From a phage: DNA of 64,000 bases. Every line of letters starts with the position of its first letter. The first letter of the stretch is position 1. Under the pieces are notes generated by a model. The model saw nothing but the letters and a program-made list of their open reading frames with translations. It had not been told where the DNA came from and did no database searches. Both the position numbers and the translations under genes were made by a program. Positions 28,932 through 60,975 of this stretch are shown here, piece after piece. The stretch lies in the sequence record PX441839.1, one strand, 5' to 3'.

Positions 28932-29306
28932 TTACAAGTAGACACGTTGGACTTCTTTGTCTGCCTTTTCGAACATCATGTTTGCCATGTTAATATCCTT
29001 GATCACCACCTCTGTAATCTCGTCCGGACGAAAAGCCTTAAGTGACCGTTTAAAGATGATAGTCGGATCTTCACATGGATCACCTGATGTGTCAAACAAT
29101 TTCACCAGCATCTTAACAGGAACTTGACAAGACACCTTTCCCCCATAGTTGATTGCATACGCTGCGCCGACCTCTGCCTGACGGTCTCCCAGTTCATACA
29201 CCAAATTCAGGTTTACATATTTACAACCTTGACCTGCCGTTATGTTCTTTGTTGCAGAGATGCAGTTCCAACCTGGTTCAATAAAGGTGTTGTCAAAAAT
29301 GCTCAT
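28932..29306 (-). CDS. hypothetical protein
   Basis: Start moved to the ATG of MSIFDNTF (AAGGAG RBS lies inside the longer track ORF). Confidence 0.5.
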   Translation of the reverse strand: MSIFDNTFIEPGWNCISATKNITAGQGCKYVNLNLVYELGDRQAEVGAAYAINYGGKVSCQVPVKMLVKLFDTSGDPCEDPTIIFKRSLKAFRPDEITEVVIKDINMANMMFEKADKEVQRVYL

Positions 29307-29371
29307 GGTGAAATCTCCTTTCATTAAGTTATGGGTCTATTATATAAGACCCACCTCAATTAAGTCAACAC

Positions 29372-31997: not shown

Positions 31998-32327
31998 TTA
32001 ATATCTCCCATTATCAAATTCATTTCTTGCCCATTGGACTGCCTTTATGAGCACATCTCCGTGACAAGGTTGCGGTGAGCAGAAGCAGACTAGGTCTTTG
32101 CCCTCCAACTCAAGAAGATCACCAATTGTTATTCTACCTTCTTTTATCTGAGTCCACAACCACTTTCTGTATCTTTCGATTGTGGCCCCTCTCGGCTCAT
32201 CATTTGACAATTTGAAAGGGTTGGCAAATCTCGATTGGAGTAGCCCGAAGTGGGGCATTCTCCTCCCGATATAAACTGCATTCTCTGGTATGACCTTCCC
32301 TAAGTGGTAGAAGTTCAATACCTTCAT
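31998..32327 (-). CDS. DUF4326-like protein
   Basis: Start at internal ATG (MKVLNFYHLGK) with GAAGG RBS; motifs AVYIGRR, FANPF, RYRKWLW, LVCFCSPQPCHGDVL recalled as typical of DUF4326. Confidence 0.5.
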   Translation of the reverse strand: MKVLNFYHLGKVIPENAVYIGRRMPHFGLLQSRFANPFKLSNDEPRGATIERYRKWLWTQIKEGRITIGDLLELEGKDLVCFCSPQPCHGDVLIKAVQWARNEFDNGRY

Positions 32328-32328
32328 A

Positions 32329-32664
32329 TTACTTACCTTCACGGTCCTTGTCAATAATTTTCTGTGCCAGATCGGATAGCTTGTTGCCAATGAATGGCAT
32401 CTTGTCCAGCAATTTTGTGGATTTTCTCTCCAGATCATAAAATAGGTCAGTGGCCTTGTCGAAGATCCATCCTCCAAACTTACCGATATAAACAAAGACA
32501 AGGGCCAGTGTCCTATGGGGATTAATAACCAGCAAGGCAAAGAGTAAACCTGCCATCTTACTGTGGAATTTGACCTCTTTCCAAAAATGTTTTAACTTAG
32601 TCACCATATAGTTGAGTCTCCGGAATAATATCTTCAATAGAGTCGTCCCAAACAACACAGCCAT
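32329..32664 (-). CDS. hypothetical membrane-associated protein
   Basis: ORF with a hydrophobic segment (MAGLLFALLVINP...); exact start uncertain. Confidence 0.4.
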   Translation of the reverse strand: MAVLFGTTLLKILFRRLNYMVTKLKHFWKEVKFHSKMAGLLFALLVINPHRTLALVFVYIGKFGGWIFDKATDLFYDLERKSTKLLDKMPFIGNKLSDLAQKIIDKDREGK

Positions 32665-44228: not shown

Positions 44229-44998
44229 CAAAGTTTAGCAGGTTCGTTAATCCTGCCCACACCATTACGTGTTGCCATACGGTTTCCCGTAGGATCGGAC
44301 TATATCACCACCCTTTTCAGGGTGCTCCCCATTTCGACGCCACTTGGTCGCCTACGCCTCTCGGCTAGTCTCTGAACGTTAAGACCACGTATACTTCTCG
44401 GAAATATGCTTCCACTGCCGACGCTGCTTAATGGCTCGTACTGTTGCATAGGGGAATCCCATGTCGCGTACCTCTGCCTGGCTCATTCCGCTTTCAAGAA
44501 GCTGGCAAATGGTCATCACTTCGTCTTCTGTGAGGGCACTATTAGCATTGTTGATACCTTCCGCGCTGCGACAGTTGTGGCGATAGGCGTTCTCTATGTT
44601 TTTGCCTCTCGTAACCCACTGTAGGTTGTCTTTGTGGTTATTCCTTTTATCGGGCCACTTGTGATCAACCTCTGGAAGATTGTTCGGATTGGGAACAAAA
44701 CATTCTGCCACCAAAACATGGACCGCCTTTGTCGTCGCCTTTTTGTTAAGGTAAAGACTGACAATTGCATACCCTCTTCCATTATCAACATGCTTCATAG
44801 GTTTACCTCGACGACCTATAATGGTCCCGTCCTCGTAAACTTTATATCCGAAATAGTCTTTGTACTCCACGTAGTCCTCTTCGCTGCTGATTAACATAGC
44901 TGCACTTTAGTTTATTATTAACCCAGTGTCAACCTTAGCCTTCCAGCAATTAAAGGAGTTTTCGATGTAGGTTGCCCTACAAAGCCACAATGTTACTT
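44229..44998 (-). mobile_element. group I-like intron in the DNA polymerase gene, carrying an HNH homing endonuclease ORF
   Basis: About 770 nt separate the exon 1 end (...VRRIIYYH) from exon 2 (DEYQLEVP), splitting motif C. It contains an HNH ORF and an 80-nt core conserved with the second intron. Boundaries approximate. Confidence 0.55.
44379..44897 (-). CDS. HNH homing endonuclease
   Basis: 172 aa; HVLVAECFVPNPNNLPEVDHKWPDKRNNHKDNLQWVTRGKN is an HNH-type motif; lies between the polymerase fragments. Confidence 0.75.
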   Translation of the reverse strand: MLISSEEDYVEYKDYFGYKVYEDGTIIGRRGKPMKHVDNGRGYAIVSLYLNKKATTKAVHVLVAECFVPNPNNLPEVDHKWPDKRNNHKDNLQWVTRGKNIENAYRHNCRSAEGINNANSALTEDEVMTICQLLESGMSQAEVRDMGFPYATVRAIKQRRQWKHISEKYTWS

Positions 44999-47326
44999 AT
45001 GGTAATAGATAATACGACGAACTCCCTCGTCATACCATCCCTTCTTGACCAGTTGCCAGTGAAGCAAGATTCCAACCAGGTCAAATAGTGCTGCACCACC
45101 ATTCTGCTGAAATGCGTTCAACAGGGAGTGCTTTGAACGAGTCCAAATCTTACGCCCATCCAAACCATAGATGAATCTTTTCCCTGTCGCTTCCCAGAAT
45201 TTCTCCAGCGCTTCTTTACGACCTTTTAATCCGATGTTGCTATCCCAGAATGCGTTGATTACATCCTGTGCCTTATCTACTGTGATTCCAAGCATGGATG
45301 CAATCTTGGGTGCCTGAGCGCCGTACATGATTCCATACGTGATACTCTTTCCCTCGCCACGAGAAACCTTCTTCCCCGCTGCCTTTGTGTATGCCTCTGC
45401 GTTTCGGGTGTGGGCGTCCCCCGACTCCATGATTTCAAGGTAAGCGCCACCATCGAACTCATACGCACCCCAAGCCGCAATCATACCTTCCAGGTTAGAA
45501 CCATCAATACCCACTTGGTACTTACCCTTTGGTGCTCGCCAAAGGGAACGCATCTCATAACCAAACAACACCTTCGGATCAGGCTTAGGCATGTTTGCGC
45601 AGATCGTGTGCTTACGACGCCCAGTGTTGGTAATCCCTGAGAACCTTGCTGGTAATCGACCATCAATCTTCAAGCGTGGGTGGTTAAGAAGTCCAGTATC
45701 AACCTTATCCTCTTTCAGTGGATCAAGGACAGATCGTCGGTTACGTGCAGATAACCACTGAACAATGCCTTTAGCCATCGCACCATCCACCTTTTCCAAG
45801 TTTGGGCACAATCCCTGCTGGTCTTTCAACTGAGGGCTTGTTGGCAATGCACGGGCCTTCTTACGGAAGAATTTGAACATCTTCTCCTTGTCTGCCCACT
45901 GCTTAGGGGTAATGTGCAAGTTCTTAAGGATAAGATCACGATATTCTGTCTGATCTAGTTGCTCAATATACTCCCGCACAATTGCATCAACTTCACCATC
46001 CGGACGTTGCTTTTTAAACTGGTCCTTTGTTGCATCCTTTGTACGCCAAATTGTTGGAATCCAACCCGCATCTCGGATGAGGAACTTCTTAACATCATCC
46101 TGGTTACCGATACGCATCGGAATCATTATATCTGGCATGGTCTTATTCTTCAAGTCCGCCAAAGCCCGTGCCATATCCTCTGGAGGTAGTGGCTCCAGTG
46201 TGGATTGTTTTTCGTTCTGACTACGAATGAACTGAGGCATTTGATCCTCATCTTCCACCCCGTGGTCATTACAGTATTTAATAGCCGCAGCCGTAAGTGA
46301 ACCATCTGCCTTAAATGCTTTAGCCGGAGGCCCCTTGAAATCAAGGGCTTCCCAATTAATATTGTATCCTAACTTCTCCAGCCATTTCCAACCTGTGCCG
46401 GACAATGTCCCGTCACCCTTGAAAGGTTTGGATGGGAAAGTTGGTTGTGCGGATTTAGCCATCTCTTTCTTCGGAAGCTGAGGCTCAACCTCTTCCTCAA
46501 TCTTCTTCATGAAGGCATCAACCGTATCGCGGAGTTTCAGCGCCGCCTCTATGTCAAAATCAACACCTTGGATTTCTTGCTCAATCATCAGGTAATCGGT
46601 AAGCATACCTCGACGAAGAGAGTCTTTCCAGTTGATCATTTTATATTTTGTTGGGACACGCTCATCTTTAAACATGAAGCGTTTATCATCTGGGTACGCA
46701 TCGCAGGTGATTTCCTTCATAAGGGCGTCCCACACCTTTTCGTTGATGATAACGTCCTCAATGATACGGTCACAATACTTCCACAACGGGAGTCCACGCC
46801 AATCATCAATGGCGACTTTCAGGTTGGCTACTCTCATACCCCATGCTTCCAGACCATGAGGGCCAACAGGTTTCATCTTTCCTGTGACAGGGTTTTTAAC
46901 CATTTCTGGGCAACCCTTCGGCAATGGGCGGTCAGGGTAGAGTGTACGAGACATAGACAAGGAGTCAAACAGGTTAACCTGTTTTCCATTGATCGTTCCC
47001 ATGCACTTAGGATCGGCAAACATATCGTATTGTGTACCGAACAGCTTCTTGAACAGACGTAAGTCATATCCAAACAAGTTGTGAATAACAATGCTACTAG
47101 GGACTTCTGTGAACCATCTATTAAGGTCAGAGAAGTTCATTACATGCAGATTGAATCCCTTCGCATTAACGAAGTTCAAAGCCTCTTGATAACCCTCTCG
47201 CGCTGGGTCCATGAAGAGATACCAGTTATCCTTTTTGTACTCCTTGAAGAGGATGCAGTGAGCATGTAAGTTCTCCTCGTCAAGTAAACCAGATGCTTCC
47301 GCATCACCTACCCATAAACCTTTCAT
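44999..47326 (-). CDS. DNA polymerase family A, exon 1 (3-5 exonuclease and polymerase domains through the start of motif C)
   Basis: Motif A-like DGSNLEGM (D.S..E), motif B-like KSITYGIMYGA (K...YG..YG), N-terminal exonuclease-like region; ORF ends abruptly at ...VRRIIYYH-K-stop inside motif C. Confidence 0.8.
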
Positions 47327-49090: not shown

Positions 49091-49804
49091 TTATTGGTTG
49101 TGTAGGAAAACTGCCTTTGCCAAACCCCTTGGGGTAAGGGAGCGTATCAGTTTTGTACGTGCCGATTTACCACCTAACTTATTATGCTGCTCAGAATATC
49201 CCTGTGCGACACCGACAGGCGACTTCACTGGCATCTTGAACCCTTTCCCCGTCCAAAGGCATGTCTTCTTAGGATAAGCGTCACGAGCCTTAATGTACTC
49301 AGGGAAAAATGGATTCACATCATCCTCCGGTAAGTAACCACCATACTCATATGGGTGGAACTGGTAGTCAGATTTTCTCCATTTTGTTGCCAAAACACTT
49401 ACAGGGTTTTCTATCATGTAAGGGCAGTCGAAAACAAACTCTGCCAAGTATGCCGGAATTTTTGCAGTACGTACAGCATTTATTTGGAAAAATGGATCTT
49501 TTGCTGCTTTTCTTTTAAAGTGGGCTGCACCGCTCACCGCCATATCTGTGCAGGGAGGGAAGGCAAAGATAATATCTGGGTTTGGGATTCCCAAACTTTC
49601 AACATTCTCTGCCCACTCCATGTCAATCCACGCATCCACATACGTCACGTTCGGGTGATTAACTCTTACATTATCATACAATCCGTGGTCAGCCTCCTTA
49701 GCGTTGAAGCAGAAGCACAGGTGACCAGCTTTTGCCCAATCAAAGACCATTGCCCCAGATCCATCAAACAAAGACCAAACAACCTTTTTAGACATGCTTT
49801 TCAA
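49091..49804 (-). CDS. putative DNA (cytosine-5) methyltransferase-like protein
   Basis: Ordered motifs SLFDGSGA (motif I, F.G.G), FPPCTD (motif IV, PC) and IENPV (motif VI, ENV); short (237 aa) for a complete C5-MTase. Confidence 0.45.
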   Translation of the reverse strand: MKSMSKKVVWSLFDGSGAMVFDWAKAGHLCFCFNAKEADHGLYDNVRVNHPNVTYVDAWIDMEWAENVESLGIPNPDIIFAFPPCTDMAVSGAAHFKRKAAKDPFFQINAVRTAKIPAYLAEFVFDCPYMIENPVSVLATKWRKSDYQFHPYEYGGYLPEDDVNPFFPEYIKARDAYPKKTCLWTGKGFKMPVKSPVGVAQGYSEQHNKLGGKSARTKLIRSLTPRGLAKAVFLHNQ

Positions 49805-57640: not shown

Positions 57641-57698
57641 GAGGACTCCTAAAATAATAAAGGCCCAGTGTACTTAACTGGGCCAGTGTGTCAATAGC

Positions 57699-59117
57699 TT
57701 ATCGCTTCATTTGTGAAAATAAATATGTTTTAGCTACCTTCGAGATACGGCTACCAACATCCTTCATAGTTAACCCCGAAGTCTCCAGTGTATCGTACTC
57801 CTCCTTGTAGATATCTGAGTTAAGCCACTTTAAAAATTCACCAACTTTAGGCCCAAGTTCAACAGGGTCTTCGCCAAATACCTCAGTAAGGGCTTGGTCT
57901 AGTCGAGATTTGGTTAAAGCATACTCAACAAACTTCTCCACAGACTCCAACTTCTCAGGGTCAACCGTCGCCAGTTTCTTCACCTTTGAAGACGAGTGTT
58001 TTTCACCCTTAACCTTAAACCATGTCCCAGAGTTCTTTGCAAGTTCCTTCTTAAGGGGTTTCCATACAACACCCTCACCAATACCAGTCACCCCAAAGAA
58101 CTTACCGATGGGACAAGCGTCTTCAACCTGGGTGGTGATCTCTACAAGCCGATTTGTTGATTTTTCAGGGTCATTGAAGTCAATAACCTCAGTGAACCAG
58201 CCAAAATCCATAGCATTGTAGACCTTTATATGCGGTGCAGAGAGAGCCATCATTGAAATTGTATTCGTCCACTTCATCCCTTGATTATCTCGACCAAAAG
58301 CCACACCAATAATCATGAATGTTCGCTCAAGCTCAGATACGGCAACGCCCTTTTGAATGCCCTTCCCCATCCACTCACCAGCAATTTCGATAGGGTATTC
58401 TACAGGAATGCCTTTGGATCGTGCAATGAACTTTGCTTGCTCAAAAAGGTGCTCTACTTGGACAATCTTCTTAGCGAAGAATTCAGCAAACCCGTTGTTG
58501 TCTGACACCAAAGGTAACAGTTTACGCTCTTTACTTTGGAAAGCGATCTCTCCATCAGCGTACTGAACGAAACTCCCATTTGTTCCGTGGGCCTTTACCG
58601 TACCAATGTACACCTCTTTTGCATCCGAAGGCATAGGTTTACGAATGACGTTTCCATCCTCATCCACACCTCCAAATGTCAGAGTATTCTGAACATTCTT
58701 AACAACATTTCGGAATTGACCCGTGGAGGGGTATTTAATAGCTGATTTGTCCACAGGTTCAGACTGCATAAGGTCATGTTGACCGGATACGATCCGAGAT
58801 TTTAATTCTTCCCACATTTCAACTAGGTCTTCACCCGTGACAACCTCTTGAACCTTTTCCCCAACCAACTTGTAGGCGCTGTTACGAGTAATTGCGTACA
58901 GTTCACCATCTTTTGCGGCAAATCCGCAAACATAGGATGTTCGGATATCCGAAGAATCTCGGAATCGATTCCCCATATCCTTTTCCAAATTACCAAAAAG
59001 ACAAATTGCCTTACTTCCTTTCAATAGACCTTCCGTGACAATACCGAAGTCAACACTACCTTCAACACGGAGTTCCCCACAATAGCGACGACCTTCAATA
59101 ATCTTATCCAATTTCAC
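57699..59117 (-). CDS. ATP-dependent RNA ligase-like protein (Rnl2-type KxHG motif)
   Basis: Nucleotidyltransferase motif I-like GTVKAHGTNGS (K-x-H-G-x-N as in T4 Rnl2, from memory); 472 aa with an about 170-aa N-terminal extension. Confidence 0.55.
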   Translation of the reverse strand: MKLDKIIEGRRYCGELRVEGSVDFGIVTEGLLKGSKAICLFGNLEKDMGNRFRDSSDIRTSYVCGFAAKDGELYAITRNSAYKLVGEKVQEVVTGEDLVEMWEELKSRIVSGQHDLMQSEPVDKSAIKYPSTGQFRNVVKNVQNTLTFGGVDEDGNVIRKPMPSDAKEVYIGTVKAHGTNGSFVQYADGEIAFQSKERKLLPLVSDNNGFAEFFAKKIVQVEHLFEQAKFIARSKGIPVEYPIEIAGEWMGKGIQKGVAVSELERTFMIIGVAFGRDNQGMKWTNTISMMALSAPHIKVYNAMDFGWFTEVIDFNDPEKSTNRLVEITTQVEDACPIGKFFGVTGIGEGVVWKPLKKELAKNSGTWFKVKGEKHSSSKVKKLATVDPEKLESVEKFVEYALTKSRLDQALTEVFGEDPVELGPKVGEFLKWLNSDIYKEEYDTLETSGLTMKDVGSRISKVAKTYLFSQMKR

Positions 59118-59610
59118 TCTCCTTTAATACATACACGGTAACATCCCAATGAGATAGATTTTTATCAATCATCTTAGAGATAATTTTCCAATCACCTCCG
59201 GCAAGACCTGCACCAAGCTTAGGTAAACCCACCCGAAGTTCATTTTTTGGTACGTCCAATAAACGAACCTTTCCGTGAAGAGATGCGTTCATCATTTTTA
59301 AAGCCTTGTCTAAGGCATCATAATCAAGGTCCATCTTCCCCTGTTTACGTAACCACCAACCAAACTGACCGTAGAGGTTGTACACAAGGGTTGCGGATTC
59401 GAAGCAAAAAGCCTCTGTTATAGTCCCTAGCTTACCTTGATCACCCTTCTTTGTGTTTTGATCAACGTAGTAAGCCTCTGGAAATGATTTTGCAATCAAG
59501 GGAGCAATCCCAGATTTCATAGTGTTGAAACAATTGCAGCAGTGAGCGATAACATCCACCTCTTTGTCTTTAGCTGCCTGGATAAGATCACCAACCTTGT
59601 ATTTTATCAT
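59104..59610 (-). CDS. macro domain protein (ADP-ribose binding/hydrolase-like)
   Basis: GDL...VDVIAHCCNCFNTMKSGIAPLI and GLPKLGAGLAGGDW match the two Gly-rich loops of macro domains; overlaps the RNA ligase gene start. Confidence 0.6.
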   Translation of the reverse strand: MIKYKVGDLIQAAKDKEVDVIAHCCNCFNTMKSGIAPLIAKSFPEAYYVDQNTKKGDQGKLGTITEAFCFESATLVYNLYGQFGWWLRKQGKMDLDYDALDKALKMMNASLHGKVRLLDVPKNELRVGLPKLGAGLAGGDWKIISKMIDKNLSHWDVTVYVLKESEIG

Positions 59611-60919: not shown

Positions 60920-60975
60920 CTAAAAAGTCCTCACTTGTTACAATGAGGACAGATTACATGATCCTTTTTAAGTTG

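Follow-up and report, generated by a model that had tools for sequence, protein, structure and literature searches.

The established phage RNA ligase that counters host anticodon nucleases is Rnl1, which acts together with Pnkp. To our knowledge, what Rnl2-type phage ligases do in biological terms has been an open question since 2002, and our search of the literature on the role of Rnl2/RnlB returned nothing relevant. Here we describe a locus in a 64,000-nucleotide (nt) stretch of phage DNA (PX441839.1; the whole stretch is referred to as the window) in which the gene of a macrodomain protein overlaps the gene of a predicted Rnl2-type RNA ligase with a fused N-terminal accessory domain (N-domain). 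Phage macrodomain proteins of the same family have been described in other settings. T4 Tk.4/AdfM is needed for growth on DarTG2 hosts (bioRxiv 10.1101/2025.11.20.689424), and Adpp of Vibrio phage Gary is a Poa1p-like phosphatase of ADP-ribose (ADPR)-1''-phosphate that yields ADPR, is encoded with Adps on one side and Namat on the other, and enables NARP1 to defeat the aRES defence (bioRxiv 10.64898/2026.01.28.702374). The AdfM of phage PhiKZ is a more distant analogue (PMC13309987). In Deinococcus radiodurans, a ligase (DRB0100), a PARG macrodomain (DRB0099) and an HD-Pnk protein (DRB0098) are encoded in one operon (PMC11833690).

Two adjacent genes in an apparent compact unit

We consider it probable that the macrodomain and ligase genes serve two separate functions and are chance neighbours ending one compact minus-strand transcription unit. 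Both open reading frames (ORFs) lie on the minus strand, at the coordinates given in an initial annotation of the window, and they are far beyond chance since they are long and have hundreds of homologues. They are ordinary genes, and the modest novelty of the locus resides solely in the fusion of the accessory domain. The features of the unit are as follows.

59104..59610, minus strand: macrodomain gene, 168 amino acids (aa); phrog_335, ALC1/TARG1-like class, SCO6735/BT1257 subtype; homologous both to T4 Tk.4/AdfM and to Adpp of Vibrio phage Gary
57699..59111, minus strand: gene of the N-domain fused to the predicted Rnl2-type RNA ligase, with a likely TTG start at 59111
57699..59117, minus strand: longest ORF of the ligase, with a GTG start at 59117, 472 aa (470 aa from the TTG)
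59119..59124, minus strand: AAGGAG Shine-Dalgarno sequence within the 3' end of the macrodomain gene
57662..57684, minus strand: terminator-like GC-rich hairpin and T-run directly past the ligase stop codon, from a pattern scan only
60927..60950, minus strand: upstream terminator-like hairpin, from a pattern scan only

The window belongs to a Vequintavirinae phage whose only close public relative is Salmonella phage SSBI34, with 83% nt identity over the macrodomain/ligase region. Their SSBI34 counterparts, which share 8 nt, bear the labels 'putative phosphatase' and 'RNA ligase'. The two hairpins, as seen in the pattern scan only, bound an apparent unit of ∼3.2 kb in which five small ORFs are followed by the macrodomain gene and then the ligase gene, and the two genes are probably co-transcribed. 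No tRNA genes were found in the window.

The Shine-Dalgarno sequence sits 7 nt ahead of the TTG at 59111 but only 1 nt ahead of the GTG at 59117, and SSBI34 and other homologues begin at the position of the TTG. On account of this spacing and of these homologues, the real start of the ligase is probably the TTG rather than the GTG. The overlap of the macrodomain stop with the ligase start, pointed out in the initial annotation, is real, but its size with the TTG start is 8 nt (TTGGATAA) and not the 14 nt obtained with the GTG.

That annotation had also read the tight coupling of the two genes as a sign of a combined function, and this is not supported. Overlaps of 1 to 8 nt are the rule among the neighbouring genes of the region, and gene overlap in a tightly packed phage operon should not be taken as a sign of functional coupling. 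In sister Vequintavirinae (4MG, Av-05, Mydo and KB57-like phages), 1 to 5 small ORFs separate the macrodomain gene from the ligase gene. A member of the macrodomain family lies within 6 kb at only 14 of the 82 loci with ligase relatives, and these 14 come from Vequintavirinae-like phages (with 0 to 5 ORFs separating the two genes), Thalassavirus (at a distance of about 4 kb, within the NARP1-AP operon) and one jumbo phage. Phage records with the macrodomain family also outnumber those with the ligase family ∼16-fold (2511 versus 154). The two genes also occur apart, as one locus (L083) carries the fused ligase with no macrodomain gene, and in Certrevirus CR3 a macrodomain gene (gp089) overlaps by 8 nt a free N-domain gene (gp088), directly after which comes an endolysin gene, with no ligase. 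The immediate adjacency of macrodomain and ligase reflects the loss of intervening small ORFs together with the fusion in this lineage, and the N-domain is not strictly dependent on the ligase.

Fifteen ligase loci adjoin genes for Rnl1, Pnkp or a kinase, a metallophosphoesterase, or cREC, as in classic RNA-repair cassettes, and this set is disjoint from the macrodomain-bearing loci. Because genes for Rnl1, Pnkp and phosphoesterases are found clustered with this ligase clade elsewhere, a role of the ligase itself in RNA repair would be plausible, and a link of this clade to RNA repair, as first proposed, is upheld by its recurrence beside RNA-repair genes in other phages. Such partners are not seen here: single-sequence searches at E ≤ 1e-4 detected no Rnl1 (PF09511), Pnkp, kinase, cREC or phosphoesterase in the window or in the three segments (L001, L088 and L089) that together make up the SSBI34 genome outside the stretch matching the window. 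Likewise, no genes for Tpt1/KptA, sirtuin, Pnkp, Rnl1 or NARP1 were found in the window (Pfam on 29 ORFs; phmmer/tblastn), and the SSBI34 annotation at 118 to 141 kb was uninformative. The suggestion that the ligase acts against anticodon nucleases is therefore not supported, as the established ligase of this kind is Rnl1 with Pnkp, not Rnl2, and searches of the window and of SSBI34 beyond the window-matching stretch revealed neither Rnl1 nor Pnkp.

Complete RNA-repair cassettes containing the same ligase clade occur in unrelated phages (L091:3998-7077, L090:5263-9224, L008:4721-8584 and L010:4722-8584), in the orders Rnl1-Pnkp-Rnl2like and cREC-metallophosphoesterase-Rnl2like-Rnl1-kinase. A phosphoesterase is fused to the ligase in a protein of 524 aa (P0040). 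We rejected the possibility that the cREC/phosphoesterase genes of L008 and L010 replace the macrodomain gene in the same slot, as the ligase is all that those loci have in common with the window.

The macrodomain protein

By sequence comparison, the 168-aa protein is a macrodomain of the ALC1/TARG1 class. The Pfam Macro model (PF01661) gives 16.4 bits, below its cut-off of 22, and family membership is secure despite this because a profile of 26 family sequences matches macrodomains in the PDB (BT1257, 1e-19; SCO6735, 6e-15; TARG1, 8e-13; Poa1p, 3e-11; DarG, 5e-7). These matches are confined to ALC1-like macrodomains. With phmmer, the single sequence also matches PDB entries (2afc, 4e-9; 5e3b, 5e-7), the proteins matched being BT1257, SCO6735, yeast Poa1p, human TARG1/OARD1 and DarG macrodomains. 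The PHROGs match is phrog_335 'phosphatase' (7e-57), and the sole NCBIfam match, antitoxin DarG, is sub-threshold.

The two Gly-rich loops of an ADP-ribose-processing macrodomain, both recognized in the initial annotation, are present as N26-x7-G34 (NCFNTMKSGIAP) and P130-KLGAGLAGGDW-141 and are invariant or nearly so in an alignment of 26 homologues. No variation is seen across this alignment at N26, G34, Q82, G133 or G139, and G135 is almost fully conserved (≥90%). N26, Q82 and the Gly-rich loop align with N27, Q85 and G128 of SCO6735, and Q82 sits where TARG1 (K84) and DarG (K80) have their catalytic lysine. SCO6735 reverses the thymidine ADP-ribosylation of DNA by DarT; its Q85 substitutes for the catalytic lysine of TARG1/DarG and is essential for this reversal, and mutation of N27 or Q85 abolishes or nearly abolishes activity (PMC9411070). 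The mobile loop of the window protein (GQFGWWLRKQGKMD) is long and aligns with GQHGMKTGSKG.

The family (phrog_335) comprises 2511 phage records by tblastn. The window protein is 33% identical over its full length to the RB3 tk.4 product (E 1e-24) and 37% identical to the Achelous orthologue of Gary Adpp (E 5e-29), and it is roughly equidistant from Tk.4 and Adpp, since these are themselves 39% identical to each other. The protein would be an ADP-ribose 1''-bond hydrolase of the phage AdfM/Adpp family and most likely a counter-defence enzyme. It may strip DarT2-type thymidine-linked ADP-ribose off phage single-stranded DNA, or it may convert ADPR-1''-phosphate, made by RES-type NAD+ phosphorylases, to ADPR and so feed NAD+ reconstitution by Adps and Namat. 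Both the AdfM-type and the Adpp-type activity are plausible, sequence alone does not tell them apart, and both may apply. The earlier remark that macrodomains can reverse ADP-ribosylation is thus in keeping with the ADP-ribose-processing, counter-defence family to which this protein belongs, and the pointer to DarT systems was apt given that the T4 homologue Tk.4/AdfM protects against DarTG2 (bioRxiv 10.1101/2025.11.20.689424). The protein adds one more member to a phage family that counters DarTG2 and RES-type NAD+ depletion.

The NARP1 genes Adps and Namat are absent from the window (phmmer/tblastn). In SSBI34, homologues of Adps and Namat lie at 37.2 to 40.0 kb and the macrodomain gene at 109.3 kb, ∼70 kb away, so that the Adpp/AdfM homologue of Vequintavirinae is not linked to the NARP1 genes of these phages, which is relevant to predicting the defences evaded by such therapeutic-candidate phages. 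The arrangement Adps-macrodomain-Namat was confirmed in phage Achelous, and Gary is 95% nt-identical across the operon.

Two observations on these cassettes can be added. The SSBI34 pair (L089:37233-39995) is a two-gene NARP1-like cassette with 43% (Adps) and 35% (Namat) identity to Thalassavirus and no macrodomain gene beside it; as the sole macrodomain homologue in the SSBI34 sequence searched is ∼70 kb from it, Vequintavirinae may run an 'unlinked' NARP1-AP. In Vibrio phage Achelous (L011:969-3975), the Adps-Adpp(macrodomain)-Namat operon lies ∼2 kb upstream of the Thalassavirus ligase, with ThyX or small ORFs in between.

The RNA ligase and its N-terminal domain

The domains of the predicted ligase, all on the minus strand, are listed below.

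58782..59111, minus strand: N-terminal accessory domain, residues ∼3-112; sister phages encode it in a small gene of its own
58740..58781, minus strand: acidic linker, residues 113-126, low-confidence, joining the N-domain to the ligase core
57993..58739, minus strand: nucleotidyltransferase domain, residues ∼127-375, with motif I (K175xHGxN180), motif III (E248, plus Q255), motif IV (E348-G349) and motif V (K368/K370)
58578..58595, minus strand: motif I, KAHGTN; K175 is the predicted adenylylation nucleophile, and the motif aligns with T4 Rnl2 K35-N40
57702..57992, minus strand: Rnl2-type C-terminal domain, all-helical, residues ∼376-472; R405 and D435 match T4 Rnl2 R266 and D292

We assign the ligase to a distant clade of the Rnl2 family (phrog_548) and do not regard it as the T4 RnlB orthologue. 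The sequence contains K175-A-H-G-T-N180 and matches PF09414 (2.6e-8) and, over residues 127-466, phrog_548 (6e-61). Its family has 154 phage records. A family profile aligns with residues 33-326 of T4 Rnl2 (E 1.4e-9), spanning both the nucleotidyltransferase and the C-terminal domains. TIGR02307 (Rnl2) covers model positions 27-320 of 326, but with 41 bits against an equivalog cut-off of 197. Across 34 aligned homologues K175, H177, G178, N180, E248, Q255, E348, G349, K368, K370, R405 and D435 are invariant, and the invariant residues fall on K35, H37, N40, E99, Q106, E204, K225, K227, R266 and D292 of T4 Rnl2. The counterpart of T4 motif IIIa (F119/D120) is a hydrophobic residue (F in most relatives and I here) followed by Gly, although the alignment here may be offset. 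The AlphaFold2 model has a predicted local distance difference test score (pLDDT) of 88, with helices predicted over residues 387-471, and its top Foldseek neighbours are the T4 Rnl2 structures 2hvq, 2hvr and 1s68, followed by Naegleria NgrRnl. The reading as a KxHG-motif, Rnl2-like RNA ligase in the initial annotation was therefore sound, and for both proteins the profile searches lead to the claimed families and the catalytic residues are present. The enzyme is predicted to be ATP dependent and to seal nicks in RNA between 3'-OH and 5'-PO4 ends, with K175 as the putative adenylylation site. A DNA ligase is encoded separately in SSBI34.

Selfish elements are drawn to the ligase gene. In Pseudaeromonas phage KLEP7 (P0076), the ligase bears an intein; in Raoultella phage Ro1 (L019:5446-7034), the ligase ORF is broken into two parts and has an ORF resembling an HNH endonuclease immediately upstream.

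Typical relatives of the ligase are 340 to 350 aa long and align from residue ∼127, and the core has ∼48 residues ahead of motif I. An N-terminal extension, reported in the initial annotation as ∼170 aa long and unexplained, is indeed present, but it measures about 125 aa (a domain at residues 3-112 plus the acidic linker), and its origin is a gene fusion. We interpret it as a small upstream gene fused onto the ligase. In 4MG, Av-05, L006, PVP-SE1 and Hena1, the N-domain has an ORF to itself, which abuts or overlaps the start of the ligase, and it is fused to the ligase in SSBI34, Acinetobacter phage ABPH49, Serratia phage Kashira and several metagenomic lineages. The fused forms make up at least 10 protein clusters, with identities to the window ligase down to 38-42%, and occupy two adjacent clades of a neighbour-joining tree of the ligase core; for these reasons the fusion is old and maintained. 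The same observations rule out an annotation or frameshift artefact as the source of the extension.

The N-domain is modelled as five long β-strands followed by two helices (pLDDT 85), and the linker, with an isoelectric point of 4.5, has a pLDDT of ∼60 and below in both models. A Foldseek search of the PDB gave no significant match for the N-domain, the best being the DNMT1 RFTS domain (E 0.098, TM 0.3-0.4); Pfam and NCBIfam yielded nothing credible, and a word-indexed homologue search with the N-domain alone yielded no match. In BFVD, only uncharacterised small phage proteins were recovered (4MG V5KSG9, 1e-7; PVP-SE1 gp237; Hena1), and an exhaustive profile search gave 74 representatives, mostly stand-alone and of 58 to 190 aa. 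Matches to multi-GAF sensor kinases were discarded as spurious, being summed weak repeats of profile positions 66-106. The 'methyltransferase' label found on phrog_16099, on PVP-SE1 gp237 in RefSeq and on the small proteins of 4MG and Av-05 was set aside as well, having neither profile nor fold support. On free-standing N-domains it looks like a propagated mis-annotation, and the DNMT1 RFTS match may be its origin.

In this lineage, the small upstream gene has become part of the ligase gene and supplies an N-terminal accessory domain, which might, with low confidence, target or bind the ligase substrate. The ligase offers a more useful lead than the macrodomain. Its defined accessory module occurs in some phages as a gene of its own, translationally coupled to the ligase, and in others as a fusion at the N terminus. 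The N-domain is also a concrete partner for studies of ligase binding, substrate targeting and nick sealing.

Alternative explanations and comparison with known systems

Several points weigh against taking the macrodomain and ligase genes as chance neighbours. The order macrodomain, N-domain (where present) and Rnl2 is conserved across several Vequintavirinae genera, and in Thalassavirus the ligase of the same clade has a macrodomain gene about 4 kb upstream of it, which leaves room for some functional linkage. The Shine-Dalgarno sequence inside the macrodomain gene, together with the overlap, suggests translational coupling of the ligase to the macrodomain. The dephosphorylation of ADPR-1''-phosphate is also the Poa1p activity of the by-product pathway of eukaryotic tRNA splicing. 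Finally, the evidence on AdfM and Adpp comes from preprints.

A single RNA-repair or counter-defence pathway of macrodomain and ligase, as first proposed for this locus, seems unlikely to us. The macrodomain would remove ADP-ribose from blocked RNA ends (for instance 5'-phosphate-ADP-ribose), or clear the ADPR-1''-phosphate/Appr>p by-products of NAD-dependent end-healing, and Rnl2 would then reseal the RNA. Rnl2, however, needs ends that already carry 3'-OH and 5'-phosphate groups. Plausible co-transcription and translational coupling, the gene order conserved in Vequintavirinae and the presence of the ligase clade in RNA-repair cassettes elsewhere (with Rnl1, Pnkp, metallophosphoesterase and cREC) all speak for such a pathway, but the loci with these RNA-repair partners and those with a macrodomain gene are disjoint, and no Tpt1/KptA, sirtuin, Pnkp, Rnl1 or kinase was seen among the scanned ORFs of the window or, by single-sequence search, in SSBI34 beyond the window-matching stretch. 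TARG1-class macrodomains can strip ADP-ribose from RNA phosphate ends, and the ligase-PARG-HD/Pnk operon of D. radiodurans offers a precedent (PMC11833690), as does the NAD-dependent RNA-repair network in which Iyer et al. place Macro, 2H and KptA (PMC9503650). Against this, SCO6735, which is the best-characterised relative of the window macrodomain and its third-ranked PDB match after the uncharacterised BT1257, showed no activity towards 5'-phospho-ADP-ribosylated RNA or towards 2'-OH ADP-ribosylated RNA in assays (PMC11833690). Those phage homologues that have been characterised have DNA or a soluble metabolite as their substrate, and the macrodomain occurs without the ligase in Certrevirus, in T4-like phages and in about 2300 other records. 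We note that PMC11833690 contradicts itself on SCO6735, which is inactive on 5'-phosphate-ADP-ribosylated RNA/DNA in its Results and active on RNA phosphate ends in its Discussion; the contradiction bears on whether SCO6735-type macrodomains could service RNA ends.

The N-domain enters two further explanations. It could be a partner of the macrodomain, or an adaptor between macrodomain and ligase, in an ancestral unit of macrodomain and N-domain to which the ligase core was added later. The 8-nt overlap of gp089 and gp088 in CR3 is the same junction as in the window with no ligase after it, and the N-domain occurs in about 25 Certrevirus-type records while no Pectobacterium phage is among the ligase matches. 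We nevertheless find this quite improbable, since the N-domain always abuts the ligase where both exist, up to four ORFs separate it from the macrodomain (4MG, L006 and Av-05), in at least 10 protein clusters it forms one protein with the ligase whereas no profile-search match joins it to a macrodomain, and L083 has the fusion with no macrodomain gene. A three-part pathway reversing ADP-ribose-linked RNA damage by host defence is, in our view, very improbable. The macrodomain would strip RNA ends or bases, the N-domain would recognise the damaged RNA or recruit the enzymes, and Rnl2 would reseal. The N-domain, free-standing or fused, always lies between macrodomain and ligase, and such a pathway, if true, would give Rnl2-type phage ligases their first biological role. 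That the ligase serves not RNA repair but the replication of DNA or the metabolism of RNA primers, by closing nicks with RNA termini on DNA templates, appears very unlikely. T4 Rnl2 can seal 3'-OH RNA-strand nicks on DNA templates, and the ligase gene lies between early ORFs and genes for a PIF1-like helicase, a DnaB-like helicase and PolA, but SSBI34 has its dedicated DNA ligase and the clade clusters with Rnl1 and Pnkp in other phages. The closely related Certrevirus has the same replication module and no ligase, and the ligase is therefore dispensable for replication. Separate functions for the macrodomain and the ligase thus remain our preferred reading.

A few other features of the window can be recorded. 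Just past the ligase terminator, inside the replication/early block, lies a gene for a SleB-type cell-wall hydrolase (PF07486; 57122..57640, minus strand), whose N terminus resembles a signal peptide (MKKRITAILLACTLSLSTASALA) and which is labelled endolysin in relatives. An HNH endonuclease ORF (44379..44897, minus strand) is directly downstream of the family-A DNA polymerase gene (44993..47326, minus strand), which is weakly matched by Pfam, and this HNH ORF could be a homing endonuclease insertion. The minus-strand block further includes genes for a DUF4326 protein (31998..32540, minus strand) and a DUF7325 protein (28932..29324, minus strand) and an ORF weakly resembling a C5-cytosine methylase (49091..49804, minus strand). 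Strand and GC skew switch at about 27.6 kb of the window.

Among known macrodomains, the best solved-structure matches of the window protein are SCO6735 and BT1257 (PDB 5e3b and 2fg1/2afc). It shares with them the equivalents of N27, Q85 and G128 and a long basic mobile loop, while SCO6735 and BT1257 are cellular proteins and K34 and V25 of SCO6735 are S33 and C24 here. T4 Tk.4/AdfM belongs to the same phage family, with the N-x7-G and G-x-G-x-A-G-G-D-W loops and Gln in place of the catalytic Lys, but its mobile loop is 6 residues shorter and its gene neighbourhood is tk-vs. PhiKZ AdfM, unlike the window protein, keeps the Lys (K78). Gary Adpp, as judged through its Achelous orthologue, is of the same family and has the same long mobile loop; it lies inside the Adps/Namat operon, whereas the SSBI34 counterpart of the window macrodomain gene is ∼70 kb from that pair.

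As a phage RNA ligase in counter-defence, T4 Rnl1 with Pnkp against PrrC is a natural point of reference, and the window clade adjoins Rnl1/Pnkp in other phages. The window ligase, however, is Rnl2-type by our assignment, and neither the window nor SSBI34 outside the window-matching stretch yielded a Pnkp or Rnl1 match. DRB0098-0100 of D. radiodurans resemble the window pair in placing a ligase gene beside a gene for a macro-fold ADP-ribosylhydrolase, but DRB0099 is a PARG with another catalytic mechanism whereas the window macrodomain is TARG1/SCO6735-type, and that operon includes an end-healing kinase/phosphatase, of which there is none in the window unit. T4 RNA ligase 2 (gp24.1; PDB 2hvq) shares with the window ligase motifs I, III, IV and V, Q106 and the equivalents of the C-terminal R266 and D292. 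The two are 16-18% identical in structural alignments, the D120 position is Gly in the window ligase, and the latter has an extra N-terminal domain of ∼112 aa with a linker. N-terminal domains in cis are found in Naegleria NgrRnl and Deinococcus DraRnl (Rnl5), and trypanosome REL1 receives an OB fold in trans from KREPA2. Like these enzymes, of which NgrRnl is its second-best structural match, the window ligase combines a nucleotidyltransferase core with an accessory domain that is either fused or separate; unlike them, it has an N-domain without significant similarity to a solved fold and retains the Rnl2 C-terminal domain.

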